Positions 2,078-24,912 of a DNA stretch of 64,000 nucleotides are shown piece by piece; position 1 is the stretch's first letter, and every line of letters starts with the position of its first letter. The notes under the pieces were generated by a model, which was not told the DNA's origin, made no database searches, and worked only from the letters and a program-made list of their open reading frames with translations. This DNA comes from Leucoraja ocellata (lineage: Eukaryota), in the NCBI GenBank assembly GCA_036785375.1, contig JAWMAR010000258.1:1984001-2048000 (forward strand). The letters run 5' to 3'. A program made the position numbers and the translations under genes.

Positions 2078-2169
2078 CTGGAGTCCTTGATGGTTGAGAC
2101 ATTGGTGTTCAGGGCAGTCTTGATATTCCTCAAGTTCCATATGATCATGACAAACAAAACCGTGTTAAC
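2078..2169 (-). CDS. TIM-IgV adhesion GPCR, exon 14 (TM5-ICL3, VNTVLFVMIIWNLRNIKTALNTNVSTIKDSR); TM6-TM7 exons lie left of the window
   Basis: 92 nt, phase 0-2, ttgcAG and GTACGT; LN..VST.KD.R is an ADGRE-type ICL3. Confidence 0.93.
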
Positions 2170-2354
2170 CTGCAACACAGCAGCACCGTAATTATAGTTC
2201 CAACTAGACCAAGTGATCTTCCAATCTCACTGTGGAACTGCTACACTACAATGCTGAGAAACTATATTCTGCACTCTGGTAGTTTTCTCTTCACTCGTAC
2301 TGTTGTACTTGAGTTTGGCTTGATTGTATTTATGCATGGTGGTGCAGCGGTAGA

Positions 2355-2806
2355 GATAACCATATAACCACATAACCATATAACAATTACAGCATGGAAA
2401 CAGGCCATCTCGGCCCTACAAGTCCGTGCCGAACAAATTTTTTTTCCCCCTTAGTCCCACCTGCCTGCACTCATACCATAACCCTCCATTCCCTTCTCAT
2501 CCATATGCCTATCCAATTTATTTTTAAATGATACCAATGAACCTGCCTCCACCACTTCCACTGGAAGCTCATTCCACACCGCTACCACTCTCTGAGTAAA
2601 GAGGTTCCCCCTCATGTTACCCCTAAACTTCTGTCCCTTAATTCTGAAGTCATGTCCTCTTGTTTGAATCCTCCCTATTCTCAAAGGGAAAAGCTTGTCC
2701 ACATCAACTCTGTCTATCCCTCTCATCATTTTAAAGAACTCTATCAAGTCCCCCCTCAACCTTCTGCGCTCCAGAGAATAAAGACCTAACTTATTCAACC
2801 TATCTC
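2355..2806 (-). mobile_element. CR1 3' fragment of a subfamily with an (ATATGGTT)n tail
   Basis: ORF LGLYSLERRRLRGDLIE. Other CR1 3' ends lie at about 4030-4330, 4690-4985, 7600-8000, 12240-12770, 15065-15410, 29055-29750, 32365-32795, 43000-43345, 45190-45483 and 52640-53365. Confidence 0.9.
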
Positions 2807-3071
2807 TGGATGCTGCCTGATAGCGCCAGAGTCCCGGGCTCAAAGCTGGCCACGGGTGCTGTCTGTACGGACAGCACGTCTGCCTCGGGGGGCAGCGGAG
2901 GCCGGTTCTCTGGATACTTTCAAGAGAGAGCTAGATAAGGCTCTTAAAGATAGCGGAGTCAGGGGACATGGGGAGAAGGCAGGAACGGGGTACTGATTGG
3001 GGATGATTAGCCATGATCACAGTGAATGGCGGTGCTGGCTCGAAGGGCCGAATGACCTATTCCTGCATCTA

Positions 3072-3208
3072 NNNNNNNNNNNNNNNNNNNNNNNNNNNNN
3101 NNNNNNNNNNNNNNNNNNNNNNNNNNNNNNNNNNNNNNNNNNNNNNNNNNNNNNNNNNNNNNNNNNNNNNNNNNNNNNNNNNNNNNNNNNNNNNNNNNNN
3201 NNNNNNNN
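3072..3208. other. Assembly gap
   Basis: N run; the flanking exons (67 and 92 nt) join in frame, so no coding exon appears to be lost. Confidence 1.
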
Positions 3209-5006
3209 CGCACACACACCTCTCTCTCATGTACACACACACAGGTACATGGATAGGACAGGTTTGGAGGGATATGGGCCACAGGAGGGCAGGTGGGACT
3301 AGTGTAGATGGCACATGTTGGTCAGTGTGGGCAAGTTGGGCTGAAGAGCCTGTTTCCACACTGTATCACGCTATGACTGTAAAACATGGACTGAGGAGCA
3401 GTCCATAAATGAAACATTCAACATGACACCAGGGTACTCATAGACATACTTGGTGCAAACTTCACCCCGATGAAAAATAAAAATCCCTGTGCAACAAGTA
3501 GCTAATAATAGACTGGGTTAAAAGAGGATTCAAGTTTCACAAGAGGGAGGGAATGTGCTGGTTTAGTCCAAAGCAGACCAAAATACAGGAGCTAGTGTGA
3601 GGGGGAGATTAGATGCTTTAAATGATGTAGAAAGAGTTGGTGGAGATTTGATGAGAGTTTGGTTTAGGTTAGTTTAGAGATACAGCACAGAAACAGGCCC
3701 TTTGGCCCACCAGGTCCACACCGACCAGCGATCCCCGCACACTAACACTATCCTACACACACTGGAGACAATTTACACATACACCAAGCCAATTAAACTA
3801 CAAACCTGTACGTCTTTGGAGTGTGGGAGGAAACCGGAGCACCCGGAGAAAACCCACACGGGTCACGAAGTGGATGTACAAACTCTGTACAGACAGAACG
3901 GCTGGTCAGGATGGAACCCAGGTCTCTGGAGCTGTGAGGCAGCAACTCTACCGCTGCGCCACCGTGCCACACTAATGGACAGGCCTTGAGATACCACCCG
4001 TGCCTGCTCCACTTACTCTGCCTCATAAACATAGACAATAGGTGCAGGAGTAGGCCATTCGGCCCTTCGAGCCAACATCACCATTCAATATGATCATGAC
4101 TGGTCATCCCAAATCAATACCCCATTCCTGCTTTCTCCCCATATCCCTTGATTCCGTTAGCCCAAAGAACTAAATCTAACTCTCTTTTGAAGACATCCTG
4201 TGAATTGGCCTCCACTGCCTTCTGTGGCAGAGAATTCCACAGATTCACAACTCTGGGTGAAAAAGCTTTTCCCTCATCACAATCCTAAACAGCCTACCCC
4301 TTGTTCTTAAACTGTGATACCTGGTTCTGGACTCGGTTGGGAAGGCGGATGAAGGCTGCGGCAGAAAAGGGTCTCCAGTCGCCTTGGACTCCATGCCACT
4401 GGATCCTGACCCAGATCTGTCAAGGACCGTGGGGTGGGCTGTCTGTACACCAGTCTCCCCACGTTAAACAAAGTCACGCACAGGCGTCCTCCACAGTCAT
4501 ACTCGTTGCGATGAAAGGGCGGGAGAGGGGAACAGGACCAGCAGCCAGCAGCTTGGGCAACCGTGGCCGGTGACATGTCCAGGCACTGGTCACTCATAGA
4601 CTGACCACAGGCAGTCACCCGCCATGGGAGGGTCACACACACACACGAAGGCACCACCTTCAACTCTCCCACTACCGTATGGCTTTCCCCTTATTTTAAG
4701 AATAAGGAATAAGCCATTTAGAACGGAGACAAGGAAACACTTTTTCACACAGAGAGCGGTGAATCTGTGGAATTCTCTGCCTCAGAGGGCGGTGGAGGCA
4801 GGTTCTCTGGATACTTTCAAGAGAGAGCTAGATAGGGCTTTTAAAGATAGTAGAGTCAGGGGATATGGGGAGAAGGCAGGAACGGGGTACTGATTGGGGA
4901 TGATCAGCCATGATCACATTGAGTGGCGGTGCTGGCTTGAAGGGCTGAATGGCCTACTCCTGCACTTAATTTCTATTGTCTATTGTATCACTCCTTCCAA
5001 CCTTAC

Positions 5007-5073
5007 CAAAACCACGAAGGACACCGGACCCAACAAACTCCAGATAAAACCTTTCTCCAGATCCAGCCAACAC
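5007..5073 (-). CDS. TIM-IgV adhesion GPCR, exon 13 (ECL2-TM5, CWLDLEKGFIWSLLGPVSFVVL)
   Basis: 67 nt, phase 2-0, cttgcAG and GTAAGG; CWL...GFIWS..GPV motif. Missed by the ORF track. Confidence 0.95.
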
Positions 5074-5692
5074 CTGCAAGTAAAGAAACATGTATTCATT
5101 TAGCAATGGGATTTTCAAAAGTAATAAGTTTTTTTTAACCTTCTGGGGCTTCTGTTAAAGTCTTGCATCACAACTTCTGACAGCCAGGGTGATTACAGCA
5201 ATGAAGATAGACGCAGAATAACTCAACGGGTCAGGCAGCATCTCTGGAGAACATGGAGAGCTGACGTTTCAGGTCGGGACCCTTCTTCAGAAGTGGTATT
5301 TGAGGCAGAACAAGGGTCTTGACCCGTAATGTCGCCCATTCCTTCTCTCCAGAGATGCTGCCTGTCCCGCTGAGTTACTCCAGCTTTTTGTGTCGATCTT
5401 CGGTTTAAACCAGCATCTGCAGTTCCTTCCTCCATATGATATTAACACCAATCAGGGTGAGTGGACTGGAGGCTGCGTCAGCTTGAATGGAGCATCTGGG
5501 TGGGCATGGAGGAGTTGGGCCTAGTCTGTGGCTCTGGGACAGCAGAGATTGTAAAGGCAGCACACAGTACAAACAGGTATATGTAGGAAGGAAGATGCTG
5601 CTTTAAACTGCATAGATAGACACAGAGCTGGAGTAACTCAGCGGGACAGGCAGCATCTCTGGAGAGAAGGAATGGGTGACGTTTCTTCAGTC

Positions 5693-6228
5693 TGTGTGAT
5701 GGTGTGTGTCAGTGTGTGTGTCACCGTGTGTGTCACTGTGTGTATCACTGTGTGTGTCACCATGTGTATCACCGTGTGTGGCGGTGTGTGTGGCGGTGTG
5801 TGTCACCGTGTGTGTCACCGTGTGTGACGGTGTGTGTGTCACTGCGTGTGTCACCGTGTGTCACCATGTGTATCACCGTGTGTGGCGGTGTGTGTGGCGG
5901 TGTGTGTCACCGTGTGTATCACCGTGTGTGGCGGTGTGTGTGTCACTGTGTGTGACGGTGTGTGTCACCGTGTGTGACGGTGTGTGTCACCGTGTGTGGC
6001 GGTGTGTGTCACTGTGTGTGACGGTGTGTGTCACCGTGTGTGGCGGTGTGTGTCACCGTGTGTGGCGGTGTGTGTCACCGTGCGTGGCGGTGTGTGTGGC
6101 GGTGTGTCAGATTCAGATTCAATTTTAATTGTCATTGTCAGTGTACAGTACAGAGACAATGAAATGCATTTACGCATGTCACCGTGTGTGTCACCATGTG
6201 TGTCACCGTGTGTGATGGTGTGTGTCAT
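5693..6228. repeat. GT-rich minisatellite (GTGTGTCACC/GTGTGGCG units) directly after the TM3-TM4 exon donor
   Basis: Visible tandem array, interrupted at about 6107-6175 by a LINE tail. Confidence 0.95.
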
Positions 6229-6234
6229 ACTGAC

Positions 6235-6470
6235 CGGTCATGACTCCAGTAGCCGCAGGTGTTGACAAAGGCTGCCACGGTCACCACCAGCGCCGGGCAC
6301 AGGTAGGCGACAGTGTACATGTATCGCCGCTTCATCACGCGTGTGCGGGTGAAGTTCACCACCTTCAGGTTGAGCACCATCAGCCACAGGTGTACGGCCT
6401 CCAGCAGCATCCAGCTGAACGCCACCAGCAGCAGGTAGTGCAGACTACCCAGCACCAACGCACACTCTAT
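6235..6470 (-). CDS. TIM-IgV adhesion GPCR, exon 12 (TM3-TM4)
   Basis: 236 nt, phase 0-2. C...LHYLLLVAFSWMLLEAVHLWLMVLNLKVVNF; the NLKVVN ICL2 is ADGRE (EMR1/EMR3)-like. Confidence 0.96.
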
Positions 6471-6765
6471 CTGCAGAGACAGCAGTGGTCACTGCATGCC
6501 CATTGGAGACCACTCAATACCCACCCCTCACCTACTCCACCCATCCTACACCCCCATCCAATCAAGGCCACCCACCCAAACAGCCAACCCATCCCTACCC
6601 ACTCTCACCCACCCTCAACCCAACACACTCCATGCCCCCTGGCCAATACCTACCTCACCCCTCATGCACCCTCAACCCACACCCCACACTCAACCCTCAC
6701 AAGACCCCCCCATCCCACATCACATGCACCCTACACCCACCCCGCACCCCTCACCCACACTTTAC

Positions 6766-6969
6766 CGATTGCGGTTTGATGAACATGGTGATGAGGAAGA
6801 GCAGCTCGGCCAGGAAGAGGTTGAGGCAGAGGTGCGCTCGGATCAGCGTGTAGAGGCCGCGGATGGCCTTGCACCAGAAGAAGGTTGCTAAGGACAACAA
6901 GAGGAAGAAGAGCGACACGGGCAGCACCAGCACAGTGATCCACCAGAGGGCGGTACTGTGCACCGGGTC
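6766..6969 (-). CDS. TIM-IgV adhesion GPCR, exon 11 (TM1-TM2)
   Basis: 204 nt, phase 0-0. ALWWITVLVLPVSLFFLLLSLATFFWCKAIR...HLCLNLFLAELLFL is adhesion-class TM1/TM2. Confidence 0.95.
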
Positions 6970-8689
6970 CTGAGGGCAACACAGATCAACATCAGGCAAC
7001 CGCAATGTAAATGGTCCAAGTTTACGATGCAGCACAAACCACACCAACTTACTCCAGTACTTTGTGAGCCTGAAGAAGGGTCTCGACCTGAAACGTCGCC
7101 TATTTCCTTCGCTCCGTAGATGCTGCCTCACCCGCTGAGTTCCTCAAGCATTTTTGTCTACCTTCCAGTCTTTTGTTAGGTTATTTTCTAAACCAGTATC
7201 AGCAGTTCAGACGAAATGTGTTGGAAGGAACAGCAGATGCTGGTTTACACTGAAGATATGCACAGAATGCTGGTGTAACTCAGTGGGTCAGGCAGCATCT
7301 ATGGAGCGAAGGAATTGGTGATGTTTCGGGTCGAAATCCTTCCTCTGATGCTGGTTTACATTGTGGAGAAATTCAACGGCAGCATCTTCAGAGAAAAAGG
7401 ATGGGTGACATTTTGTCTCGGTCTGTAGGCTTCCTCAAAGTGCCCCTGGAGTGTAGGATGCGAAAGTGGGATAACATGGAACTAGTGTACATGTGATCAG
7501 TAGTCGGCGTGGACTCGGTGGGCTATTATCAACAGACTGGAAAAGCAACAAAATGAAATGAAACAAATTTAAATGAAACTGAACTGAACTAAATTGTACA
7601 CTCTGGAGTTTAGAAGGATGAGAGGGTATCTCATTGAACATGTAAAGTCATTAAGGGTTTGGACACGCTAGAGGCAGGAAACAAGTTCCCGATGTTGGGG
7701 GAGTTCAGAACCAGGGGCCACAGTTTAAGAATAAGGGGTAGGCCATTTAGAACGGAGACGAGGAAACACTTTTTCACACAGAGAGTTGTGAATCTGTGGA
7801 ATTCCTCTATGGAGGCCGGTTCTCAGGATACTTTTAAGAGAGAGCTAGATAGGGCTCTTGAAGATAGCGGAGTCAGGGGATATGGAGAGAGAGCAGGAAC
7901 GGGGTACTGATTGTGGATGATCAGCCATGATCACATTGAATGGTGGCGCTGGCTCGAAGGGCCGAATGGCCTACTCCTGTACCTATTGTCTATTGTCTAA
8001 ATTAAACGGAACTTAGCGGAACAAAACTAATCTAAATGAAACTAATTTAAACTAAACTCCACTGAGCGAGCTTACCGAGGTCATGATCGAACCTGGCCAA
8101 TAGTTCTATGTTATCCCACTCTCACATCTCACACACTGGGGGCAATTTACAATTAACCTCCAAACCCGCACGTCTTTGGGATGTGGGAGGAAACGGGAGC
8201 ACCCGGAGGAAACCCACGCGGTCACGGGGTGAACGTGCAAACATTTGTGAAGACTTTCCACTGACTGGATAGCACGCAACAAAAACGCTATTCGATGCAT
8301 GTGACACTAAACAAAACAAATTTAAACTCCTCAACTAAAAGTGTTTAAACAAAACAAAACTAAAATAAAATGATTTAAACTAAACTAAATTAAAATAAAC
8401 CAAACTAATGTAAAATAAATTAAACTAAACTAAACTGAAAGAAAGGAAACATCTAAACTAAAAGAAGCTAAACTGAACTAAACTAAACTAAAGTGTCCCT
8501 GTATTTACATGGGGACAGCACCAGAGGTCAGGATTGAACCTGTGTCTCTGGCGTTGTGAGGCAGCAACTCTACCAGCTACTCCACTGTGTGGTGCCCGTG
8601 TTCCTGCTGCCTGTGTTCCTGCGCTGCCGGTCTGTGGGCCAAGTGGCTGCCCGATGCCCAGCTCCATGCCCGCTCTCCACCCGTCTCAC

Positions 8690-8842
8690 CATTTTGTACT
8701 GAGCCAGCAGCAGGGCAAAGCTGGACAGGGTGTTGTAGGTACAGGTGGCGTGAGTCTTGTTGCCGCTGCTCTCCTGCTGTGTTTCCCAGCCGTTGCCCAT
8801 CCAGGTGCCGCAGAGTCTCTTCCTCTTGCCATCATCGCACGG
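8690..8842 (-). CDS. TIM-IgV adhesion GPCR, exon 10 (GPS/Stachel exon)
   Basis: gcttccAG and GTGAGA, 153 nt, phase 0-0. PCDDGKRKRLCGTWMGNGWETQQESSGNKTHATCTYNTLSSFALLLAQYKM. Confidence 0.92.
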
Positions 8843-9054
8843 CTGGAAGCAAGCACACCCGAGTAGTACACCTCCCTTACACACACGCACGCACTCACAC
8901 ACACACACACACACACACACTCAAACACACACACACTCACACTATGACCGTGCGGTGAGGTCCTGGACTCTCCCACCAGTGGAAACATAGAAGATGTTGG
9001 AATCGATTTATTGCACAAGTTTCCAAAGCCGGTACCCAACCCAGGCGACGATAG

Positions 9055-9480
9055 TTTTAAAAATCAAAAATAATTTATTCACTTATTATTAAATAATATT
9101 TTACAAACTAAACCAGTGGTAACGCACCCAGCACCATAATACAAAATCACCAAATTATCTAATCACTCAATTTTCAAGTAACTATATCATCATCCATATT
9201 AATGACACATTCCACCCTCCGCGGTGCCCAGCGGTCCCGGAAATCCCCCAGGGTGCCCGTGGACAGCGCGTAGTCCGTCTCATACACCACCCGGGCGCGG
9301 AGGTAACCCCGGAAAAAGGGCAGGTAGCCGGCACGGGCAGAGCTCTCTTCCGACCTGGCGCTGTGACTCGCGGATGGCCAACTTGGCCAGGCCCAGGTGC
9401 AACCCAACCAGGACATCTTCAGCCCCCCTACCCTCTCCCCTACACACAGGGTGTCCAAAGATGTGGACGGTGGGTGTGGA
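9055..9480 (-). mobile_element. Tx1/L1-clade LINE 3' end
   Basis: Frameshifted LGLAKLAI...FRGYLRARV...FRDRWAP ORF2 C-terminus followed by an AT-rich 3' UTR with AATAAA. Confidence 0.7.
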
Positions 9481-10088
9481 GCACATTTGAGTGCTGGCCC
9501 ATAGAAGCAGATCTACAGTCACATTACAACCGCTCCACAATCTGAAATCTCTACATCTAAAGCAACATTTCTTACTTTCTCACCTCATTTCTAAAGCTTC
9601 ATCCTTTTGTTCTGAAGCTTTAGTTTAGTTTAGTTTATTTTAGAGATACAGCGCGGAAACAGGCCCTTCAGCTCACTGAGTCCGCGCCGACCAGCGATCC
9701 CCGCACATTAACATTATCCTACACACACTATGGACAATTTTTACATTTACTAAGCCAATTAACCCAGAAACCTGCACGTCTTTGGAGTGTGGGAGGAAAC
9801 CGAATATCCTGGAGAAAACCCACGCTGGTCACGGGGAGAACATGCAAACTCCGTACTGACAGCACCCACAGTCGGGATCGAACCCGGGTCTCCGGTGCTG
9901 ATTTGCTGTAAGGCAGCAACTCTACCGCTGTGCCACCGTGACCGCCCAAAAGCAGTGGCCACTGGTCCTAGACTCTCCCACTGGTGGAAGCATAGAAGAT
10001 GGTGGAATGGGTTTATTGCGCAGAGATCTCAGGGTCCGCCGTTACTGCCGTCTGCCTTGCCCCACCGCTGAGTGCTCACCTTGCTCAC

Positions 10089-10279
10089 CTCCTCCTTCAC
10101 ACGGAAGGTGATGTTGAGGGTTGGTGTCAGACCCTGCCTCTGGCCGCCCACTTTGGTCACCGTCACCACCTTCGAATTGAACTTCACACTGGCGTTGTCT
10201 CTGCCTCCCTCCTGCACCAACGTTGGCTCCACGACGGTCTCCAGCTCTCTGTAACCCAGGAAGATGAGGAGAGCGTTCT
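10089..10279 (-). CDS. TIM-IgV adhesion GPCR, exon 9 (GAIN subdomain B)
   Basis: 191 nt, phase 1-0. ENALLIFLGYRELE...FNSKVVTV...LTPTLNITF contains the GAIN Y..L, NS.VV and L...NITF motifs. Alternative donor at 10080. Confidence 0.9.
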
Positions 10280-11382
10280 CTGTCCCACCCCGTGTGTAAG
10301 AGAGAGGAAGGTGGACAGTCTGATTGGGCTCCATGTAGAAAGCACTACCACCTCGAAACTACTCATCCCCACCAGCTAACCTCATCCCACCCATCCCCAT
10401 CTCATCCGACCCCATCCCCATCTCATCCGACCCATCTAACCTCATCCCACCCATCCCCATCTCATCCCCACCAGCTAACCTCATCCCACCCCATCTAACC
10501 TCATCCCACCCCATCAAATCTCATCCCACCCCATCTCCATCTAACCCCATCCCACCTCATGCTCAACCCCAAACCTCATTAACCCTCACCCACCAGACTC
10601 CCATGGTTCCTGCATCCACCTCCAGACCCTCATCGTTCCATCAACCTCCATCCACTATTCAACCCCTCCATAACCTCCCTTCCTGGGCTGTCATAGCTGT
10701 ACCTGGGTTCCACCCGGAAACTCTGCCTCCCTCCCACCCTGCTCACCCACTCCCAAATTCCTTCACTCTGCCTTTGAATCGAGTTGGTACAGTCCACGGA
10801 TGTCCATCGTGGTCAGAGCAGGGGCCTGGACATGGGTGAACAGTGATGGCGGTCTCCACTGCTGTGGCCTGGACTGGCTCAGCATTATGGGACTTCCCGG
10901 TGAGCAGAGCAGCTCAGGGCTGGCCCAGGTGAGAAGATCATAAGGTCATAGTGATAGGACTAGCCCATCAAGTCTACTCTGCCATTCAATCATGGCTGAT
11001 GTATCTCTCTCTCCATTCTCCCCATAACATCTGACACCCGTACTAATCAAGAATCTATCTATCTCTGCCTTAACAATATCCACTGACTTGGCCTCCACAG
11101 CCTACTGTGGCAAAGAATTCCACAGATTCATCACCCTCTGACTAAGAAATTCTTCCTCATCTCCTTCCGAACAGAACGTCCTTTAATTCTGAAGCTGTGA
11201 CCTCTAGTCCTAGACTCTCCCACTAGTGGAAAAATCCTCTCCACATCCACTCTCTCCAGGCCTTTCACTATTGTGTGTGTTTCAATGAGGTCCCCCCTCA
11301 TCTGACCCTACTATCCGACCCAGGGGAAGGCTGGCAAGCTGCCCTCTGCCCTACGGATGGGGTAAGGAGAGCGGGCAGGTAC

Positions 11383-11502
11383 CGTGATCGTCCTGTCCCA
11401 GCAGCGAGAGGGAGCGGGCCACCAAGATGCTGTTGTAGGCGTTCAGGTAGATGATGGAACTCGCCGTCACTTTGTCCTTCTGTAGAGAAGCCACATCAAC
11501 CG
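11383..11502 (-). CDS. TIM-IgV adhesion GPCR, exon 8 (GAIN subdomain B, AVDVASLQKDKVTASSIIYLNAYNSILVARSLSLLGQDDH)
   Basis: cccgcAG acceptor, GT donor, 120 nt, phase 1-1, coding-like codon usage. Confidence 0.8.
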
Positions 11503-11931
11503 CTGCGGGCAAAGGGGACAGGTTACATGTGGTGAGAAGTTGGACAGGTGAGTCAATGGTGAGGTGGTGGACAGGTGAGTCAGCAGTGAAGATAGGCACA
11601 AAATGCTGGAGTAACTCAGCGGGACAGGCAACATCTCTGAAGAGAAGGAATGGGTGACGTTTCGGGTCGAGACCTTTCTTCAGACTGATGCTGCCTGTCC
11701 CGCTGAGCTCCGGCATTTTGTGTCTGTCTTCAATTTAAACCAGCATCTGCAGTTCTTTTCTACACATAGAGAGATGTTGTACAGGTCAATCAATGGACAG
11801 ATGTTGTACAGATAAGTCAATGGACAGATGTTGTGCAGGTGAACCCGGGTCTCTGGCGCTGCAAGGCAGCAACTCTACCGGGAGAATGGGGTTCGGAGGG
11901 AGAGAGAAGTGGAGTGCGGGGTGTCACTTAC

Positions 11932-12109
11932 CGATGGTGGACGACGAATAGCGCGTCTTGTTGTTGCGGAGTAGGTTGAGCGCAGCGTCGGCGATGGCAA
12001 CCTCCATGGCCTGCAGCAGGTGTCCAAGAGCTGCCTGCTGCTGCTGCTTGTTCAGGTGGCCCCATTCCTCCGGGCTGGCCAACACCGACTGGGAGAAATT
12101 ACTGAGCGT
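11932..12109 (-). CDS. TIM-IgV adhesion GPCR, exon 7 (GAIN subdomain A)
   Basis: 178 nt, phase 0-1, GTAAGT donor. TLSNFSQSVLASPEEWGHLNKQQQQAALGHLLQAMEVAIA matches the W..L......A..LL..xE helical pattern of GAIN-A. Confidence 0.88.
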
Positions 12110-13850: not shown

Positions 13851-13946
13851 CTCCATTGCAATTCCAGCATTAGAACTGTTGCATGCTTTGTCCTTGAAGC
13901 TTTGAATCTTCTTTACAATGTCTGTGAGTGCAGCCTGCGTGTCCTT
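13851..13946 (-). CDS. TIM-IgV adhesion GPCR, exon 6 (stalk repeat B, KDTQAALTDIVKKIQSFKDKACNSSNAGIAME)
   Basis: NAGNAG acceptor (13946 or 13943), GTGAGC donor, phase 0-0. Confidence 0.75.
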
Positions 13947-14704
13947 CTTCCGTGTTAGAGGAAACAAAACATGGAACAATTGTAAGATTTGTACAAAACT
14001 TTGAAAATGATAAGGAAGATGGGTGTCAAGGTGGCGCAGCGGTAGAGTTGCTGCCTCACAGCGCCAGAGACCCGGGTTCAATCCCGACTGCGGGTGCTGT
14101 CTGTACAGAGTTTGAACGTTCTCCCCGTGACTTACATGGGTTTTCTCCGAAATCTTTGATTTCCATCCACACTCCATAGACTTACAGGTTTGCAGGTTAA
14201 TTGGTTTGGTATAGATGTCAATTGTCTCTAGTGTGTGTAGGACAGTGCTGGGGATCGCTGGTTGGCGAGGACTCGGTGGGCTGAAGGGCCTGTTTCCACG
14301 CTGTATCTCCAAATTAAACACTGTATCTAAAATTAAAGGTCTGATGTAAATTGACAGCCGTGGAGAGAACACTGATGTCTGTGTGTGTGTGGGAAGGAAC
14401 TGCAGATGCTGGTTTAAACCAAAGGTAGACACTAAATGCTGGAGTAACTCAGCGGGATAAGCAGCATCTCTGGAGAGAAGGAATGGGTGACGATTCGGGC
14501 CTCGATCCATCACCCATTCCTTCTCTCCAGAGATGCTGCCTGTCCCGCTGAGTTACTCCAGCATTTTGTGTCGAACACTGAAGTTGGTTCACTTCTCCTT
14601 CCCGTGAAGTTGAAGGATGTTATGGACAATTGGCCGATTAAATGTGGTTGAGAATGAAATGTTGCCTCTGTGTAAAGATCCTGCAGGATAGGGTGTCACC
14701 TCAC

Positions 14705-14797
14705 CTTGTCCGGTCCTCCTGCGGCAGATTTGTTGCATGCTTTCTCCTTGAAGCTTCGGGTCTCGTTTACGATGTCTTGGATCACGGCTGCGTCTCT
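14705..14797 (-). CDS. TIM-IgV adhesion GPCR, exon 5 (stalk repeat A, RDAAVIQDIVNETRSFKEKACNKSAAGGPDK)
   Basis: catcAG and GTGAGG, 93 nt, phase 0-0; paralogous to exon 6. Confidence 0.75.
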
Positions 14798-16870
14798 CTG
14801 ATGTTTTAAGGGAAAGGATACATGTAAGAGGTTTCGACCGAGGATTAGCAGTGTTTACAAGGATAAGTAGGAGGAGGTGTCTGAGAGTTGGCCCGTTGCC
14901 CAACCAGAAATGTCAGGAGGAAGGCTCTCAACCCGAGTTACTCCAGCTGGTTGTGTCTATAGACCGAGGATTTTTAATTCATTCCCTTTTGCCGGCCCTG
15001 GCATCGGTTTTGCCCGTGCCCACCTTTATCGGCCAGATACATTTGGGCAGTGTGGTGGCGTGGTGGTAGACTCATGGAAACAGGCCCTTCGGCCCAACTT
15101 GCCCACCGGCCAACATGTCCCAGCTACACTAGTCTCACCTGCCCGTGTTAGGTCCATATTCCTCCAAACCTGGCCTATCCATGTACCTGTCCAGCTGTTT
15201 CTTAAACGTTGGGATAGTCCCAGCCTCAACTCCCTCCTCTGGCAGCTTGTTCCATACACCCACCACCCTCTGTGTAAAAAAGTTACCCCTCAGATTCCCA
15301 TTAAATCGTTTCCCCTTCACCTTGAACTATGTCCTCTGGTCCTCGATTCTCCTACTCTGGGCAACAGTCTCTGTGCATCCACCCGATCTATTCCTCTCAT
15401 GACTTTGTACACAAACTAGTCACCGTGGAGTTGCTGCCTCACAGCGCCAGAGATCCAGGTTCGATCCTGACTACGGGTGCTTTCCGTGCAAAGATTGTGC
15501 CTTCTCCCCGTGACTGAGTGGGTTTTATCCGGGCGCTCCGGTTTCTTCCCACACTCCAAAGCCGTGCAGGTTTGAAGGCTAATTGGCTTTGTAACTTATC
15601 CCTAGCGTGTAGGATGGAACGAGTTCATGGATGATTGTTGGTCAGCCTGTGCTCAGTGGGCCGAAGGGCCTGTTTCCACAATATATCTCTAAAGTAAACT
15701 ATGCTAAACAAGGCAAACAATGTGTTAATCACTTTCTTTCTCCCCGTGACCAGCACCCATGCTGCAGAAGGTTGCATTGGTGGGGGCTGCATTACAGCAC
15801 AGGTCAGACGCTACTCCTAAAGGTTCAGTACAGCACCACAGCTGGTAGAGCCCTGCCTTACAGCACCAGAGATCCAGGTTCGATCCTGACCTTGGGCGCT
15901 GTCTGTGCGGAGTTTGCACGTTGTCCCTGTTACCGCGTGGAATTTCCCCGGTCTCCTCCCACATCCCAAAGACGTGCGGTTTTGTAGGTCAATTGGCCCC
16001 CAGTGTGTAGGGAGTGGATGAGAAAGTGGGATAACATAGAACTAGTGTGTGAACGAGTGATCGATGGTCGGCACGGACTTGCTGGGCCGAAGGGCCAGTT
16101 TCCAGGCTGCATCTCTGAACTAAACTAAACTAAAAGGAAGATGAGGGTAGATGCACAAAGTTGGGGAAGCTCTTGATATTCTGGGCAGAGAATCAGATAC
16201 TCAAAGCACAATGTGTTGGAAGTACTCAGTAGGTCAGGCAGCATCTGTGGAAGGAATGGATAGATGACGTTTCAGGCTGGGACCCTTCTTCAGACTGGGA
16301 GCAGAGAAGATGCTTTAGTCTGAAGAAGCGTCCTGGCCCGAAACGTCACCTGTCCATTCCCTCCACAGATGCTGCCTGACCCGCTGAGTTCCTCCAGCAC
16401 ATTGTTTTTTTTTTCTCCAAATTCCAGCAAATGCAATTCCTTGGCTGCTGCTCAATTGAACTGAGAATCAGTGAATTGGTCAGTTGGTATAACAAGAAGC
16501 ATGTGTATGTATTCAGGAGAGAGTTGGAGTTAGCTCTTAGAGCAAACTGAATCAGGGGATAGGGGGACAAAGCAGGAACGGGGTCCTGATTCTGGATGAT
16601 CAGCAATGATCATATTGAATGGCAGTGCTGGCTCGAAGGGCCGAATGGCCTACTCCCGTACCTATTGTCTATGTTTCTATGCGTATCGGCGGAGTGAGCC
16701 TTGAGACCGTGAGGAGTGAGTACTGACGGGAGGGAGATCAAATGTTGAGGCCAACTGCAACAGGATTCCTTGCACAGCCTCCACTCTAACGGTGGGGACA
16801 GATGCCGGGGCTGAGGGAGGGAAGGATGGGAGCTGGAGAGGTGGTGGGAGAATCGTGGCCATGTTCTCAC

Positions 16871-16959
16871 CTGATCGGGAGCTTTGGTAGATTGTTCTGT
16901 GGTGGCATTAATGGTTCCTGTGGTGGCATTAATGGTTCCATAGCTGACAGTCGTTTCAT
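16871..16959 (-). CDS. TIM-IgV adhesion GPCR, exon 4: short Thr-rich mucin-like stalk (DETTVSYGTINATTGTINATTEQSTKAPDQ)
   Basis: ttctccAG and GTGAGA, 89 nt, phase 1-0; two NAT sequons. Confidence 0.82.
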
Positions 16960-17029
16960 CTGGAGAACAAAGAAAGCATTTGGGATTTAGACTGGGGATG
17001 GTATCATTCCCCAGGGCACAGACAGAGTG

Positions 17030-17275
17030 ATGAGGGTGGCAGTGGTAGGGGTGGCACAGTGGTAGGGGTGGCACAGTGACAGTGGTTGGGGTGGCACAGT
17101 GGTTGGGGTGGCATAGTGACAGTGTTTGGGGTGGCACAGTGGCTGGGGTGGCATAGTGACAAGGGGCACAGTAACACAGTGGCATAGTTACAGGGGGCAG
17201 AGTAACACAGTGGCTGGGGTGGATTAGTGACAGGGGGCACAGTGGCTGGGTGGCACAGTGACACAGTGGCATGGT
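17030..17275. repeat. GGTGGCACAGT-type minisatellite
   Basis: Visible tandem array in the intron between the IgV and mucin exons. Confidence 0.9.
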
Positions 17276-17845
17276 GGTCGTGACTGCCAGTGGTCGGAAC
17301 CAGCTGTGCCAGAATGCTGCCCCTAAAGTTTGAAATTCCGATGTTAGACCAACCTCCCCTTGGATATCATGAACGATGGTGGCACGGTGGTGCAACGGTA
17401 GAGTTGCTGGCTCACAGCGCCAGAGACCCGGGTTCCATCCTGACTACATGTGCTGTCTGTACGTTCTCTCTGTGACCTGCGTGGGTTTTCTCCGGGTGCT
17501 CCGGTTTCCTCCCACACTCCAATGACGTGCAGGTTTGTGGGTTAATTGGCTTGGTATAATTGTAAATTGTCCCTAGTGTGTGTAGGATAGTGGTAGCGTG
17601 CGGGGAACGCTGGTCGGCACAATGTAGCTGTGGTAAAATTGGTGTAGGATTGCGCTAGTGTATGAGTGACCGCTGGTCAGTGGAGACTCGATGGGCTGAA
17701 GGGCCCGTTTCCATGCTGTATCTCCACACCCTGTTGTAAAGGGTGGTTGGGGGGGGGGGTGGGGGGGGGGGGGTGGGGGGGGGGGAGGGGGGGGCACAGT
17801 AGAAGCCGAGGCACATTTGTCCCGGAGGTCACACATCATACTCAC

Positions 17846-18178
17846 CAGGAGGGGAGTCGGCTTTGAGGTTTCGGTTTTTTTTAAGGTCGTTCCCCAAGCC
17901 AGGTACAATGATGCGGCAACAGTATACTCCCTCATCCTTCTTCTCCAGATCCTTTATGGTCAGGGACACATCGCCGTTCTGTAAATCTCCACGCAGTTCA
18001 TATTTGGAGCTAAATTCAGGAGGGATCGTGCTTGTCGCCTCAAATTGGAAAAGCTTGTCGGGGCAGTCCAACAAAGAGCATTCCCCTCGACCCCAGCAGG
18101 TTGTGTACAATACACTACTGCTGTACGTGCAGGGGAGAGTGACTGTAGACCCCAGTACTCCCCTGATCTGTGACTCCT
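17846..18178 (-). CDS. TIM-IgV adhesion GPCR, exon 3: TIM/HAVCR-type IgV domain
   Basis: ttttacAG and GTGAGT, 333 nt, phase 1-1. Translation EESQIRGVLGSTVTLPCTY...TCWGRGECSLLDC...YELRGDLQNGDVSLTIKDLEKKDEGVYCCRIIVPGLGNDLK shows six Cys with the CWGRGxC and CCR..PG..ND hallmarks of TIM IgV. Confidence 0.93.
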
Positions 18179-19195
18179 CTGTAAAACAGAAGCGACAGAC
18201 ATTCCCTTCAGTTCAGTTAGAATCACAGAGTCATTACATTACATTGACTTCTCCAATTTCAGGTAGTCCTTGCTTTCTCCCTCCTTCCCCTCCCCTTCCC
18301 AGCTCTCCCACAGCCCACTGTCTCTGCCTCCTCCTTTCTTCTTCCTGCCCCCCACCAAATCAGTCTGAAGAAGGGTCTCGACCCAAAACGTCACCTATTC
18401 CTTCGCTCCACAGATGCTGCCTCACCCGCTGAGTTTCTCCAGCATTTTGTGTCTACATTACATTAAGTGGTTTTCACAGCAATCGAGGTTGTGGGGTGCC
18501 ATCTGCATTGTGTAGTTTTACTCAAGGGCAAGCTGGGTGGATGAGCAAGTCCTCTCCCAGCAAGAAAGAAAGAACACAATACACAATAGAAATTAAACAT
18601 AACACACAGAACATCCACCACAGTGGGACCAGCACTTCCTGCTGTGATGGAAGGCACAAACATTCAGTCAGTCAGTCTTCCTTATTCTGTGGACCCGTGG
18701 TCGGGGCCCTGAACCCTCCGCAGTCACCACTACGCATGGCCCAATGTACAGGCCCTCTCGCCGGGACGATGGAAACTCCGACGTTGGGACGGATCGGGAA
18801 CACCCCGCAGCTCGGAATTCCCGAATCGGCCGTATCCCACCGGAGACGGCGGCTTCGCGATGCCACATCCACAGGCCCAGCGGTCGGGGCACCTCTTCAG
18901 GTGATCCTTGGCGAAGGCCGCAGGCAGCTCCACGATGGTAAAGTCCGTGCCGAGATGGCTCAGGTATGATGTGAAGATAATTGAGATGTGTTTTTCATCA
19001 ATTTATCTAATGTACAGTAAACCCTTGTTATAATGAACCATGTTTGATTGTCTGCTATTGCCGCTTGTCCGCAATAACAGAGTAAGGGATTACAGAGTGT
19101 AGGAAGGAACTGCAGGCGCTGGTTTAAACCGAAGACAGACAAAAAAAGCTGGAGTAACTCAGTGGGACAGGCAGCATCTCTGGAGAGAAGGAATA

Positions 19196-19228
19196 GGTGA
19201 CGTTTCGGGTCGAGACCCTTCTTCAGAT
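19196..19228 (-). ncRNA. Minimal hammerhead ribozyme motif in a Penelope-like repeat (representative of many copies)
   Basis: CTGAAGA-A-GGGTC-TC-GACCC-GAAA-CGTC: conserved core, stem II and palindromic ACGT stem III. Confidence 0.65.
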
Positions 19229-19630
19229 TACTATAAGTAGTAGCAACAAACAACTGCCATTGCTGGTTAATGCACTAAATGACACAATATGCTGGGGCAA
19301 CTCAGTGGGTCAGGCAGCATTACTGGAGAGGATGGATGTGTCATTTAGGGTCGAGATACTTCTCAGTTCAGTCAAGTTCAGTTTAGTTTATTGTCACGTG
19401 TACCGAGGTACAGTGAAAAGCTTTAGTTGCGTGCTAACCAGTCAGCGGAAAGACAATACATGATTACAATCGAGTCATTTACAGTGTATAGATACATGAT
19501 AACGGAGTAACGTTTAGTGCAAGGTAAAGCCAGTAAAGGCTAATCAGAACCAGGGGCCACAGATTAAGAAAAAGAGGTTGGCCATTTAAAACAGAGATGA
19601 GGAAAAACTTTTTCACCCAGAGAGTTGTGA

Positions 19631-22123
19631 AACTTGTGAAATTCAAGTTGGGTGAATCAAACTGGCAGGGGTGCTGAGGAAGAGGATTTCTTGGAATGTA
19701 TGCGGGATAGTTATCTAAACCAACATGTAGAGGAACCAACGAGAGAGCTGGCTATTTTAGACTGGGTATTGAGTAATGAGGAAGGGTTAGTCAGTAGTCT
19801 TGTTGTGCGTGGCCCCTTGGGCAAGAGTGACCATAATATGGTTGAGTTCTTCATTAGGATGGAGAGTGACATTGTTAATTCAGAAACAATGGTTTTGAAC
19901 TTAAAGAAAGGTAACTTTGAGGGTATGAGACGTGAATTGGCCAAGATTGACTGGCAATTAATTCTAAAAGGGTTGACGGTGGATATGCAATGGAAGGCAT
20001 TTAAAGACTGCATGGATGAACTACAAAAATTGTTCATCCCAGTTTGGCAAAAGAATAAATCAGGGAAGGTAGTGCATCCATGGATAACAAGGGAAATCAG
20101 GGATAGTATCAAAGCAAAGGATGATGCGTACAAACTAGCCAGAAAAAGCAGCATACTGGAGGACTGGGAGGAATTCAGAGACCAGCAGAGGAGGACGAAG
20201 GGCTTAATTAGGAAAGGAAAAATGGATTATGAAAGAAAACTGTCAGGGAACATAAAAACTGACTGCAAAAGTTTTTATAGATATGTGAAAAGAAAGAGAT
20301 TAGTTAAAACAAATGTAGGTCCCTTGCAGTCAGAAACAGGTGAGTTGATCATGGGGAACCAGGATATGGCGGACCAATTGAATAACTACTTTGGTTCTGT
20401 CTTCACTAAGGAAGACATAAATGATCTGTCGGAAATAGCAGGGGCCCGCGGGTCAAAGGAGGTGGAGGAATTGAGTGAAATCCAGGTTAGTCGGGAAGTG
20501 GTGTTGGGTAAATTGAATGGATTAAAGGCCGATAAATCCCCAGGGCCAGATAGGCTGCATCCCAGAGTACTTAAGGAAGTAGCTCCAGAAATAGTGGATG
20601 CATTAGTAATAATCTTTCAAAACTCTTTAGATTCTGGAGTAGTTCCAGAGGATTGGCGGGTAGCAAACGTAACCCCACTTTTTCAGAAGGGAGGGAGAGA
20701 GAAAACGGGGAATTACAGACCAGTTAGCCTAACATCGGTAGTGGGGAAACTGCTAGAGTCAGTTATTAAAGATGGGATAGCAGCACATTTGGAAAGTGGT
20801 GAAATCATTGGACAAAGTCAGCATGGATTTACGAAAGGTAAATCATGTCTGACGAATCTTATAGAATTTTTCGAGGATGTAACTAGTAGCGTGGATAGGG
20901 GAGAACCAGTGGATGTGGTGTATCTGGACTTCCAGAAGGCTTTCGACAAGGTCCCACATAAGAGATTAGTATACAAACTTAAAGCACATGGCATTGGGGG
21001 TTCAGTATTGATGTGGATAGAGAACTGGCTGGCAAACAGGAAGCAAAGAGTAGGAGTAAACGGGTCCTTTTCACAATGGCAGGCAGTGACTAGTGGGGTA
21101 CCGCAAGGCTCAGTACTGGGACCCCAGCTATTTACAATATATATTAATGATCTGGATGAGGTAATTGAAGGCAATATCTCCAAGTTTGCGGATGACACTA
21201 AGCTGGGGGACAGTGTTAGGTGTGAGGAGGATGTTAGGAGACTGCAAGGTGACTTGGATAGGCTAGGTGAGTGGGCAAATGTTTGGCAGATGCAGTTTAA
21301 TGTGGATAAATGTGAGGTTATCCATTTTGGTGGCAAAAACGGGAAAGCAGATTATTATCTAAACGGTGGCCGATTGGGAAAGGGGGAGATGCAGCGAGAC
21401 CTGGGTGTCATTGTACACCAGTCATTGAAGGTAGGCATGCAGGTGCAGCAGGCAGTAAAGAAAGCGAATGGCATGTTGGCTTTCATAGCAAGAGGATTTG
21501 AGTATAGGAGCAGGGAGGTTCTACTGCAGTTGTACAGGGTCTTGGTGAGACCACACCTGGAGTATTGCGTGCAGTTTTGGTCTCCAAATCTGAGGAAGGA
21601 CATTATTGCCATAGAGGGAGTGCAGAGAAGGTTCACCAGACTGATTCCTGGGATGTCAGGACTGTCTTATGAAGAAAGACTGGATAGACTTGGTTTATAC
21701 TCTCTAGAATTTAGGAGATTGAGAGGGGATCTTATAGAAACTTACAAAATTCTTAAGGGGTTGGACAGGCTAGATGCAGGAAGATTGTTCCCGATGTTGG
21801 GGAGGTCCAGGACAAGGGGTCACTGCTTAAGGATAAGGGGGAAATCCTTTAAAACCGAGATGAGGAGAACTTTTTTCACACAGAGAGTGGTGAATCTCTG
21901 GAACTCTCTGCCACAGAGGGTAGTTGAGGCCAGTTCGTTGGCTATATTTAAGAGGGAGTTAAATGTGGCCCTTGTGGCCAAGGGGATCAGAGGGTATGGA
22001 GAGAAGGCAGGTACGGGATACTGAGTTGGATGATCAGCCATGATCATATTAAATGGCGGTGCAGGCTCGAAGGGCCGAATGGCCTACTCCTGCACCTAAT
22101 TTCTATGTTTCTATGTTTCTATG
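19631..22123 (+). mobile_element. Young 5'-truncated CR1 (HER1-like) LINE with uninterrupted 790-aa ORF2 (partial APE + RT)
   Basis: ORF 19652-22024 with [29 protein letters not shown] and FADD motifs; (TTTCTATG)n tail. Confidence 0.97.
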
Positions 22124-22364
22124 AATCTGTGGAATTCTCTGCCTCAGAAGGCAGTGGAGGCCAATTCTCTGGATGCTTTCACGAGAGAGTTAGATAGAGC
22201 TCTTAAAGATAGCGGAGTCAGGGATATGGGGCGAAGGCAGGAATGGGGTACTGATTGGGGATGATCAGCCAGTAGATCAGTGATTTAATTCAATCCCAGA
22301 ATGTTCATCATAGTTTGGTGTCGAGGAAGGTTAGCACAGATGTTGGGACAATCATTCAACTCAC

Positions 22365-22409
22365 CAGATTGAAGAATGGGTTCAATCCAAATGATCAAAT
22401 AGAAAATAG
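22365..22409 (-). CDS. TIM-IgV adhesion GPCR, exon 2 (signal peptide core, AIFYLIIWIEPILQS)
   Basis: ttttccAG acceptor, GTGAGT donor, 45 nt, phase 1-1, hydrophobic; unique sequence between repeats. Confidence 0.8.
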
Positions 22410-24169
22410 CTGGAAAAATAAATTGATAGTTTAGATCCAACATGAACAGTTCACAAATGATAGATTTAAAGTATTTTTATATAAAATTTAACAATAGAAG
22501 ATACCCAAGGGCGGCCCAATGGTTCTGCGGTAGAGTTGCTGCCTCACAGCGCCAGAGACCCGGGTTCGATCCTGACTATGGGTGCTGCCTGTACGCAGTT
22601 TGTACATTCTCCCCGTGACCACGTGTTTTCTCCAAGATCTTCGGTTTCCTCCCACAGTCCAAAGATGGACGGGTTTGTAGGATAATTGGCATGGTATAAA
22701 TGTAAAATTGTCCCCAGTGTGTGTATGGTATTGCTGATATACGGGGATCGCTGGTTGGTGTGGACTCGGTGGGCCAAAGATCCTTTTTCCACGCTCTATC
22801 TCTAAACTAAACTAACAGCCTAACCAACAAGATCTGGGCAAAGATTCAGTAATTGTAGACTTTGGAGGCACAGCACGGAAATAGGCCCTTCGGCCCACCG
22901 AGTCCGTGCCGACCAGCGATCCTCACATACTGGCTCTATCCGACATATACTAGGGACAATTATAATTTTTTACCAAAGCCAATTAAACTACAAACCCGCA
23001 CGTCTTTGGAGTGTGGGAGGAAACCGGAGCACCCGGGGAAAACCCACATGGTCACAGGGAGGAAGGTGCAAACTCCGTACAGACAGCACCCGTAGTCAGG
23101 ATGGAACCCGGGTCTCTGGCGCTGTGAGGCAGCAACTCTACCGCTGCGCCACCGTGCTGCTCATAGTTGGTGGGTTGGAGAGCAATAAGGTAGAGGTAGA
23201 TAGAGAGATACAGCACTGAAACAGGCCCTTCGGCACACTGAGTCCATGCTGACTGACCTAAAGGAGAGTCCTTTAATTCTGAGGCTGTGACCTCAAAGTA
23301 GCTCTTTCTTCCCAATAACCCTTTCTGGCTGAAGTCCTCCCTCCACCACCTCCAGTTTAAATTCCATTTGGAATATTTTGGAGGACCAAGACTTCTCGTC
23401 CTAGACTCTCCCACTAGTGGAAACATCATCTCCACATCACATTTCAATGAGGTCTCCCCTCACCCTTCGAAACTCCAGTGATCCTTCCAACGTTCTTTCC
23501 TATCCATCCTATAGAGGCGAGGATTCACTGTATTTTCTCACAGAGGCTATTTCGCAACCATTACCATGTTTACATCTTACAACACTTCAAAGATTGCATC
23601 AAAGGAGGAAATCCACACAGCGCTTATTGCAACATTATCGTGTGAACAAGACACTGAGCAAAATGAGCTGACCAGTGTCACGCTCGCTCGATGCAACACA
23701 AAGCCTATCCATCCGTCTTTGTAGAATGATTCTTATCATGAGAGAAAATATTATAGAGGAAATAATGCTCAAATTAGATTGGCGTACTGTGTAAGTTATT
23801 ACTGCAATGAAATTCATCAGAGTGCTACAACTCATAGAAACCTAGAAATTAGATGCAGGAGTAGGCCATTCGGCCCTTCGAGCCAGCACCGCCATACAAT
23901 ATCATCATGGCTGATCATCCAAATTCAGTACCCCGTTCCGGCTTTTACCCTCATACCCCTTGATTCTGTTAGCCCTAAGAGCTAAGTCTAACTCTCTCTT
24001 GAAAACATCCAGTGAATTGGCCTCCACTGACTTTTGTGCCAGAGAATTCCACATATTCACAACTCTCTGGGTGAAAAGGTTTCTCCTCATCTCAGTCCTA
24101 AATGGCCGACCTCTTATTCTTAAACTGTGTGGCCCCTGGTTCTGGAGTCCCTCAACATGGGGAACATTT

Positions 24170-24765
24170 TGTGGGGGTGGGGGTGTAGGGAAGGGGGGGG
24201 GGGTGTGTGGAGATGTTGAGAAGGATGTAGGGGTGGGGATGGGGTTGTGGAGATGTGGGGAATGGGTTGGGGGAGGGGGTGGAGGTGTAGAGGTGGGGGT
24301 GTGTGGGTGTGGGTGTGGGTGTGGGTGGGGCTGGGTGTGGGGATGGGGGTGTGTGAGTGTGAGTTATGGGGGTGGGGGGGTGGGTTGTGGTGGGGGTGTG
24401 TGGGTGGGTGGGTGTGGGGATGGGGGTGTGTGAGTGTGAGTTGTGGGGGTGGAGGTGTGGGTGTGAGTTGTGGGGATGGGAGTGTGGGTGGGGGGGTGGG
24501 TGTGTGAGTTGTGGGGGTGAGGGTGTGGGTTGTGGTTGGGGTGTGGTGGGGGAGGGTGGGTGTGGGGATGGGGGGTGTGAGTGTGAGTTGTGGGGGTGGT
24601 GGGTGTGGGTGGGGCTGGGTGTGGGGGTGTGTGAGTGTGAGTTATGGGGGTGGGGCTGGGTGTGTGTGGGTGTGGGGTGGGGGTGTGTGAGTGTGGGGTT
24701 GTGTGGGGTGGGGTTGTGTGGGTGTGAGTGTGGGTTGTGGTGGGGGTGTGGGTGGGGTGGGTGGT
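24170..24765. repeat. G/T-rich low-complexity array in intron 1
   Basis: Dense GGG(T) runs. Confidence 0.9.
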
Positions 24766-24881
24766 GATAACGGGCTTTGGGAAACCTGGAGGACTGTTTC
24801 TCCAGGACTATTTTTCGATGGGGCAGGGATATGTGGATGGTACCGTGCATTGAGGGGTGGGTGGGGAAGCAGCTGACTCAC

Positions 24882-24912
24882 CGTGAAGCAGGCATCCACT
24901 CTCCCTCCGCAT
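24882..24912 (-). CDS. TIM-IgV adhesion GPCR, coding exon 1 (start of signal peptide, MRRESGCLLH)
   Basis: aggATG (A at -3) at 24912, 31 nt, strong G|GTGAGT donor, phase 1. Joins exon 2 in frame to give a basic-then-hydrophobic leader. An upstream in-frame ATG also exists at 24984. Confidence 0.7.

Follow-up and report, generated by a model that had tools for sequence, protein, structure and literature searches.

A locus of the skate Leucoraja ocellata raises the question of whether two families of immune receptor have been joined in one gene. The locus lies in a stretch of 64,000 nucleotides (the window; GenBank assembly GCA_036785375.1, contig JAWMAR010000258.1, abbreviated C258, positions 1,984,001 to 2,048,000). 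From the letters alone, the original prediction had read there a chimeric receptor, in which a TIM-type immunoglobulin V-set (IgV) and mucin ectodomain was spliced onto the GAIN and seven-transmembrane (7TM) part of an ADGRE-type adhesion G protein-coupled receptor (GPCR). Our analysis indicates that this is a real, ancient and apparently undescribed receptor produced by domain shuffling. At the level of sequence, the architecture, conservation and ancestry of an elasmobranch TIM-headed adhesion GPCR are held with high confidence, while its ligand and signalling are treated below in more conditional terms.

Structure of the receptor gene

All 14 minus-strand exons of the prediction were borne out on recount, with AG at the 13 internal acceptors, GT at the 14 donors and compatible phases. 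Joined, they give 642 codons and no stop. That model ended at the fifth transmembrane helix (TM5) because the window ends there. Exon 15 (TM6-7), which an ab initio scan had missed and which was found by homology, starts 110 bases to the left of the window. Exons 15-17, identified by homology to the thorny-skate protein, measure 169, 94 and 71 nt (C258:1983891-1983723, 1982878-1982785 and 1982048-1981978). The complete 17-exon model encodes 753 residues plus a stop, with seven hydrophobic helices after the GAIN. The exons within the window, including the one bearing the GPCR proteolysis site (GPS), are as follows.

Exon 1, 24882..24912, minus strand: 31 nt; holds the ATG and the first part of the signal peptide and has a phase 1 end; the leader resembles those of shark and ray orthologues
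Exon 2, 22365..22409, minus strand: 45 nt; remainder of the signal peptide (phase 1-1), where hydropathy peaks at residue 5; found in all eight IgV-bearing copies of the genome
Exon 3, 17846..18178, minus strand: 333 nt; TIM-type IgV with six cysteines, phase 1-1 (Pfam V-set, PDB, Foldseek, tree)
Exon 4, 16871..16959, minus strand: 89 nt; short linker rich in Ser/Thr and no conserved mucin; it has two N-glycosylation sequons; its counterpart is 68 nt long in five other genome copies
Exon 5, 14705..14797, minus strand: 93 nt; first stalk repeat, with one Cys; shares 58% identity with exon 6 across 24 residues
Exon 6, 13851..13946, minus strand: 96 nt; second stalk repeat, with one Cys; corresponds in alignment to the end of the shark/sawfish four-Cys stalk
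Exon 7, 11932..12109, minus strand: 178 nt; helical GAIN subdomain A; weak Pfam GAIN match, the orthologue counterpart passing the GAIN cut-off
Exon 8, 11383..11502, minus strand: 120 nt; GAIN subdomain B, first part
Exon 9, 10089..10279, minus strand: 191 nt; GAIN subdomain B
Exon 10, 8690..8842, minus strand: 153 nt; degenerate GPS followed by an intact Stachel-like SSFA segment
Exon 11, 6766..6969, minus strand: 204 nt; TM1-TM2 (Pfam 7tm_2, hydropathy)
Exon 12, 6235..6470, minus strand: 236 nt; TM3, long ADGRE1-like second intracellular loop, TM4
Exon 13, 5007..5073, minus strand: 67 nt; Cys-Trp of the second extracellular loop, start of TM5
Exon 14, 2078..2169, minus strand: 92 nt; TM5 and third intracellular loop; splices to exons 15-17 (TM6, TM7, tail, stop)

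Seven helices and a signal peptide stood out in the hydropathy profile, and the 7TM keeps its usual motifs. The expected Pfam profile was recovered in part. The IgV exon matched V-set (E 1.5e-17) and the TM1-2 frame matched 7tm_2 (E 2.9e-6), but the GPS exon (21.4 bits, just below the cut-off of 22.5) and exon 7 (weak GAIN match, E 0.036) fell short of the GAIN and GPS cut-offs that the orthologues pass, yet the window exons align with these throughout. The 17-exon model contained no EGF exon. The predicted absence of a single-pass membrane exon between IgV and GAIN also stood, as none of the 88 acceptor-like sites in the six introns between the IgV and exon 9 led into an in-phase membrane-like segment. 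The gene model is real and not a product of chance, since orthologues align with it nearly full length, at 40-50% identity over about 730 residues, leader included. The nearest named protein, from Amblyraja radiata, is 90% identical. A search for sequencing runs gave a list of 24, of which 19 had small shares and none was recorded as RNA, a result that speaks neither for nor against expression.

A TIM-type head

With exon 3 as query, the best 15 sequence matches in the PDB were TIM-1, -4, -3 and -2 (E 7e-25 to 3e-16), and JAML was the next family (4e-10). The AlphaFold model of the IgV (predicted local distance difference test, pLDDT, 86) placed TIM structures at Foldseek ranks 1-18 (TM-score 0.79-0.88); TIM sequences were present in the AlphaFold input alignment, so this fold match is not fully independent of sequence. 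The domain holds Cys 42, 53, 59, 64, 112 and 113, four of them the extra cysteines of the TIM fold, together with an F-strand Arg, a G-strand Lys and the FG loop LGND in place of WFND. In an IgV tree from a quick search, covering 103 of the 222 Ig domains extracted, the 18 IgVs carried by receptors formed one clade among TIM-signature domains (Shimodaira-Hasegawa-like approximate likelihood ratio test, SH-aLRT, 99) and stood apart from the skate's own TIM exons. The head is TIM-type by sequence, modelled fold and tree, as had been claimed, and no grouping outside the TIMs was seen. An origin from the skate's present TIM cluster was rejected because that cluster is not sister to the receptor IgVs in this tree. 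A homologue search with the IgV alone returned a single match, a toad multi-IgV protein; the 7TM exon gave the first orthologues.

The receptor shares with TIM/HAVCR proteins (TIM-1, TIM-3, TIM-4) the six-Cys IgV, the CC'/FG cleft, the F-strand Arg, the ND residues, the G-strand Lys and the phase 1-1 exon. Unlike them, it lacks a conserved mucin stalk, a single-pass helix and a TIM tail, its IgV is attached to a 7TM, the WF pair is replaced (by LG here and by LF, PF, LL, PI or IF in sharks) and its gene is separate from the skate TIM cluster on other contigs. The receptor is not a TIM.

The TIM cluster itself, on contigs C50 and C354, numbers seven or more TIM-type IgV exons, whose FG loops vary. 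A two-IgV form labelled 'polymeric immunoglobulin receptor-like' is among the stingray relatives.

An ADGRE-type GAIN and 7TM

In the PDB ranking of the Amblyraja protein, ADGRE1 (242 bits) preceded ADGRE5 (209-199) and ADGRL (190-155, ADGRL3 at 190). A longer second intracellular loop is common to the receptor and ADGRE1, and its motif was missing from all 102 other ADGRE-like matches in which the region could be located. In a 7TM tree of 29 rows and 152 columns, rooted on three skate latrophilin-like genes (two of them checked by PDB search), the IgV-bearing receptors formed a clade (93/88) that was sister (98/93) to skate genes on contigs C455 and C2789. EGF exons lie upstream of the C455 7TM on the same strand and are taken as part of that gene, whose best PDB match is ADGRE1. 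Tree and ranking (E1 > E5 > L) agree with the prediction of an ADGRE-type GAIN/7TM without EGF exon, and assign the 7TM to an EMR-type ADGRE, with ADGRE1 as its nearest family member and EGF-bearing skate genes as its sisters. By its domains the receptor belongs to the adhesion GPCR class and, having no EGF repeats, falls outside the EGF-TM7 group.

Its GAIN, GPS region and 7TM are those of ADGRE1-4 (EMR1/F4-80, EMR2, EMR3, EMR4) and ADGRE5/CD97, with ADGRE1 as the best solved-structure match, and the gene sits inside a cluster of EGF-type ADGRE genes, which lie about 0.2-0.35 Mb away on the same contig. A head-domain number variable by splicing, as in Mustelus, is a further likeness to the family. 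It differs from ADGRE1-5 in that one to three TIM-type IgV domains replace the EGF repeats and that the GPS is degenerate in skates and sawfish. The Ig-containing adhesion GPCRs, members of the ADGRA and ADGRF subfamilies, likewise have an immunoglobulin fold upstream of the GAIN; the present receptor, in contrast, carries a TIM V-set domain on an ADGRE core. The Ig types in the adhesion-GPCR domain legend of PMC13197933 are I-set and C1-set only. The features of the C455 and C2789 genes suggest an EMR lineage that predates bony fish, and the ADGRE1-like 7TM of the receptor suggests an EMR/CD97 split, in both cases earlier than PMC8584163 proposes.

The skate ADGRE genes that have this long second intracellular loop were located at C455:1220001-1270000 and on C2789. 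Many similar ADGRE-type 7TM exons, some with stops, are found on C765, C835, C1022, C1097, C1147, C1192, C1413, C1452, C1453 and C1735, and two exons of this expansion grouped with shark EGF-type receptors in the 7TM tree. Two grass carp ADGRE2-like proteins carry an SRCR domain (PF00530) beside EGF repeats, a second, independent gain of a head domain in ADGRE.

Conservation across sharks and rays

A word-limited homologue search with the basking-shark N-terminal half found 185 proteins, of which 120 were listed. Among those listed, a V-set was present on 11, from 10 species, all of them elasmobranch (Cetorhinus, Carcharodon, two Scyliorhinus, Mustelus, Heterodontus, Heptranchias, Pristiophorus, Rhincodon and the sawfish Pristis), and the other 109 had none. 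Nine of these 11 included the 7TM, none carried an EGF family, and no chimaera or bony fish was among the V-set matches listed. The IgV-GAIN-(7TM) order is thus found in gene models of 10 species. In a GAIN/7TM tree, nine IgV-type rows grouped with support 100 and apart from 20 EGF-type rows, and the batoids, the lamniforms and the carcharhiniforms each kept together; five of the 25 EGF-type rows (four elasmobranch, one teleost) were left out of this tree, and two of the elasmobranch ones were in the rooted 7TM tree.

The RefSeq labels of the orthologues are 'adhesion G protein-coupled receptor E1/E2/E3-like' or 'uncharacterized'. Isoforms with 3, 2 or 1 IgV are annotated in Mustelus and five isoforms in Heterodontus, of which X4 skips the whole GPS/Stachel exon in frame. 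Multiple RefSeq isoforms normally reflect transcript alignments. The Mustelus series parallels the EGF layouts of CD97, which have 3-5 repeats (PMC13197933).

No description of a TIM or V-set adhesion GPCR in sharks or rays was found in the searched literature, the coverage of which did not extend to subscription journals and bioRxiv supplements, and databases label the proteins only as 'ADGRE-like'; the original prediction had known of no description of the architecture, and this agrees. PMC8584163 contains no mention of shark, cartilaginous, immunoglobulin or V-set in its text, and one supplement names none of five shark terms. The part of PMC13197933 covered has no shark, V-set, IgV or HAVCR. 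PMC11788884, with the ghost shark as its only chondrichthyan, pairs no V-set with a GPS in the text or supplement rows covered, and the main text of PMC8455134 names neither ADGRE nor HAVCR.

Origin by exon shuffling

The receptor IgV exon and all three skate TIM IgV exons checked are of phase 1-1, and the 12 EGF exons checked in two skate ADGRE genes all start in phase 1; therefore an IgV exon can replace EGF exons in frame. We propose that a phase 1-1 TIM IgV exon would have taken the place of phase-1 EGF exons in an EMR-type ADGRE gene inside the ADGRE cluster, and that this fusion was made once, before the shark-ray split, which dates to roughly 270-300 million years. Since the same layout occurs in 10 species and both halves form single clades, one such ancient event is the simplest reading, and the predicted origin by exon shuffling is supported as likely by exon phases and clades alike. 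A recent skate-only fusion was rejected because the same architecture is found in shark and ray gene models, and a misassembly between 12 and 18 kb because it recurs across copies and species. Head-domain swapping is typical of adhesion GPCRs, and models of the receptor are already in databases.

The stalk

The claim of an IgV-mucin ectodomain derived from a TIM held for the IgV exon but not for the mucin. Exon 4 has 11 Ser/Thr in 30 residues, and seven of the eight aligned orthologue stalks have no counterpart, a comparable stretch being found only in Rhincodon. In sharks and sawfish a short four-Cys stalk follows directly after the IgV. Because the Ser/Thr stretch occurs in one of eight orthologues only and the fusion junction lies right after the IgV, the 'mucin' was not inherited from a TIM, and the label was rejected in favour of a lineage-specific Ser/Thr linker. 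The two predicted stalk repeats, exons 5 and 6, were recognized as such by their mutual identity. The skate stalk (the Ser/Thr-rich exon plus a related pair of exons with one Cys each, of which the second corresponds to the end of the shark/sawfish stalk) is by alignment a lineage-specific derivative of the four-cysteine stalk.

Cleavage site and ligand-binding loop

The GPS exon foreseen in the window is present and its Stachel-like segment intact, but the site itself is degenerate, with Thr for His at position -2 and the second and fourth Cys lost. The same Thr occurs in all five other genome copies that have exon 10. Among the IgV-bearing species, His is kept at -2 in eight of ten, with Ser in Pristis and Val in Rhincodon, and the Stachel segment is kept in all GPS-bearing orthologues. 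The sawfish Ser is also the reading of the CD97 construct in PDB 8IKJ, which we take to be an engineered cleavage-deficient form. In other receptors, mutating the -2 His abolishes cleavage (PMC13197933), and the window copy is therefore predicted to be uncleaved. A receptor can belong to the adhesion GPCR class without a cleavable GPS.

The WFND loop of TIM-1 and TIM-4 binds phosphatidylserine; TIM-3, with LM or IM for WF, binds it more weakly, and TIM-2, without the motif, does not bind it (PMC4624681). In nine of the ten species ND is kept in at least one domain, and the F-strand Arg and G-strand Lys likewise. The preceding residues are LF, PF, LL, PI or IF in sharks and LG in sawfish. Skate copies have LGND, MGND, LWNE or HADP, and the skate's own TIM exons have LFND/PFND variants. 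With an FG loop without the WF pair, TIM-type lipid recognition is uncertain for the window copy. Judged from these residues, phosphatidylserine binding is plausible in the shark forms and doubtful in the window copy.

Copies in the skate genome

The genome contains eight close IgV matches (72-100%) and seven distant ones (47-48%, the TIM cluster on two other contigs). Seven of the eight close copies have a TM3-4 exon downstream on the same strand. All 17 exons are open in the window copy and one neighbour, and a third copy is open through exon 13, where its contig ends. The other copies carry an exon 7 frameshift, a truncated IgV exon, a deletion of exons 5-10, or a mutated exon-6 acceptor with an altered tail. 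Some copy pairs look allelic, which would leave perhaps three to five loci.

Young copies differed from one another non-synonymously above all in the IgV (21 of 254 sites against 22 of 1264, odds ratio 5.1, p 7e-7; in a second comparison 34 of 255 against 17 of 1068, odds ratio 9.5, p 5e-14). Synonymous differences between the young copies showed no such concentration (p 0.62 and 0.40). By eye, differences in the CC' and FG loops are conspicuous among the copies. Against the most distant copy, the ratio of non-synonymous to synonymous rates (dN/dS) of the 7TM was 0.54-0.77. Positive selection on the IgV from dN/dS > 1 was not established after correction.

Proposed function and alternatives

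Taking sequence and analogy together, we consider it probable, with some reserve, that this ancient TIM-headed ADGRE is a leukocyte adhesion and recognition receptor, as its family would suggest. The IgV would grip a target surface through its CC'/FG cleft, pull or binding would pass via the GAIN to the tethered Stachel segment and the 7TM, and the 7TM would couple to G proteins. In most sharks the metal-binding ND with a TIM-3-like hydrophobic pair and a cleavable GPS make calcium-dependent phosphatidylserine sensing the leading ligand guess, to which we give slightly less than even weight. The window copy would be a derived form, predicted to stay uncleaved and to signal with its head still attached. 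As its lipid site is weakened and its IgV changes fast, the balance tips slightly towards a variable ligand (microbial or cell-surface) over plain phosphatidylserine. ADGRB1/BAI1 and ADGRG1/GPR56 resemble the proposed function as adhesion GPCRs reported to bind exposed phosphatidylserine (PMC13197933), but they use thrombospondin repeats or the GAIN region and belong to other subfamilies, so any likeness would be convergent. A fuller version, on the whole doubtful, would have a natural phosphatidylserine-sensing immune GPCR with a TIM head since the shark-ray ancestor, a small, diversifying and uncleaved skate family whose IgV loops were reshaped by pathogens, and an EMR group (ADGRE1-4) as old as jawed vertebrates.

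Several points weigh against a leukocyte recognition receptor of this kind. The exon junctions are predictions from genomic sequence, and the orthologues are computed gene models. The IgV tree, from the quick search described above, has a poorly supported backbone and does not single out a donor TIM. The WF pair, which gives TIM-1/4 their affinity (PMC4624681), was found in none of the orthologue IgVs examined, and two types of skate copy lack ND, as does Mustelus. Several of the skate copies are also disrupted. The IgV dN/dS exceeded 1 with nominal significance in only two of six pairs (p 0.022 and 0.046), and none of the 24 tests survives correction; the GAIN, too, has dN/dS of 1.3-2.5, from few changes, a pattern that relaxed constraint would explain as well as selection would.

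Some of these points feed the best surviving alternative, which we regard as unlikely. It accepts the chimera and holds that throughout the family the IgV binds protein or glycan, in the manner of TIM-2 or of CD97 with CD55, and never phosphatidylserine, as a replacement adhesion head on an EMR receptor. The lack of WFND in every orthologue IgV examined and of ND in Mustelus, the widely variable CC' and FG loops, and the tandem IgV arrays and alternative splicing that mimic the avidity tuning of EGF repeats would all fit; the ND, Arg and Lys kept in nine of ten species, the use of the same LFND/PFND variants by skate TIM exons, and the binding of phosphatidylserine by TIM-3 with LM/IM for WF (PMC4624681) argue for a retained lipid site.

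Less probable again is that the family functions in sharks while the skate copies, including that of the window, are under relaxed constraint or decaying, or are non-signalling adhesion or decoy molecules. The long skate branch (0.43-0.44), the degenerate GPS, dN/dS near or above 1 outside the IgV and the broken copies listed above point that way. Two copies nevertheless keep 17 exons open, the same degenerate GPS is common to Amblyraja at 90% identity, two GPS cysteines were lost together, the 7TM ratio against the most distant copy stays below 1, and the non-synonymous excess is specific to the IgV.

That a secreted TIM-like IgV gene and a neighbouring headless adhesion GPCR were joined only by gene prediction or misassembly is highly improbable: the exon joins are indeed known from gene prediction and not from transcripts, the N-terminal half is absent from the Amblyraja model and the 7TM from those of Heptranchias and Rhincodon, but order and strand are the same in seven copies on five contigs, full-length models exist in eight other species, both halves form single clades with batoids grouped together, the intervening introns offer no membrane-like exon candidate, and the sole signal peptide found is upstream of the IgV.

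Other features of the window

Intron 2 contains, at 19640-22024 (plus strand), an open frame of 794 codons that encodes a reverse transcriptase domain (Pfam RVT_1, E 1e-32) and belongs to a long interspersed nuclear element of CR1-like appearance. A related 336-codon fragment lies just upstream of exon 1 (25363-26373, minus strand). An intronless rhodopsin-class GPCR frame of 310 codons at 47813-48745 (plus strand; Pfam 7tm_1, E 5e-24), without PDB match at E 1e-12, resembles the orphan receptors expanded in sharks. Helitron-like element fragments occur at about 35000-37300 (minus strand; Helitron_like_N, E 2e-6 at 36268-36543).

Significance

The TIM-headed ADGRE adds to the adhesion GPCR class a domain architecture that is unmentioned in the covered parts of the current review and vertebrate survey searched. 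In it, two separately studied immune receptor families are joined in one molecule that both sharks and rays have retained. TIM-4 acts as a tether and depends on partner receptors for signalling; a natural TIM-headed GPCR would be a test of a tether equipped with a signalling unit of its own, and engineered engulfment receptors could be modelled on it. The cleavable versions of most sharks and the predicted uncleavable batoid versions may be useful for asking whether Stachel signalling needs head release. If the proposed function is true, the receptor could couple the recognition of dying cells or microbes, in the manner of TIMs, straight to G-protein signalling.

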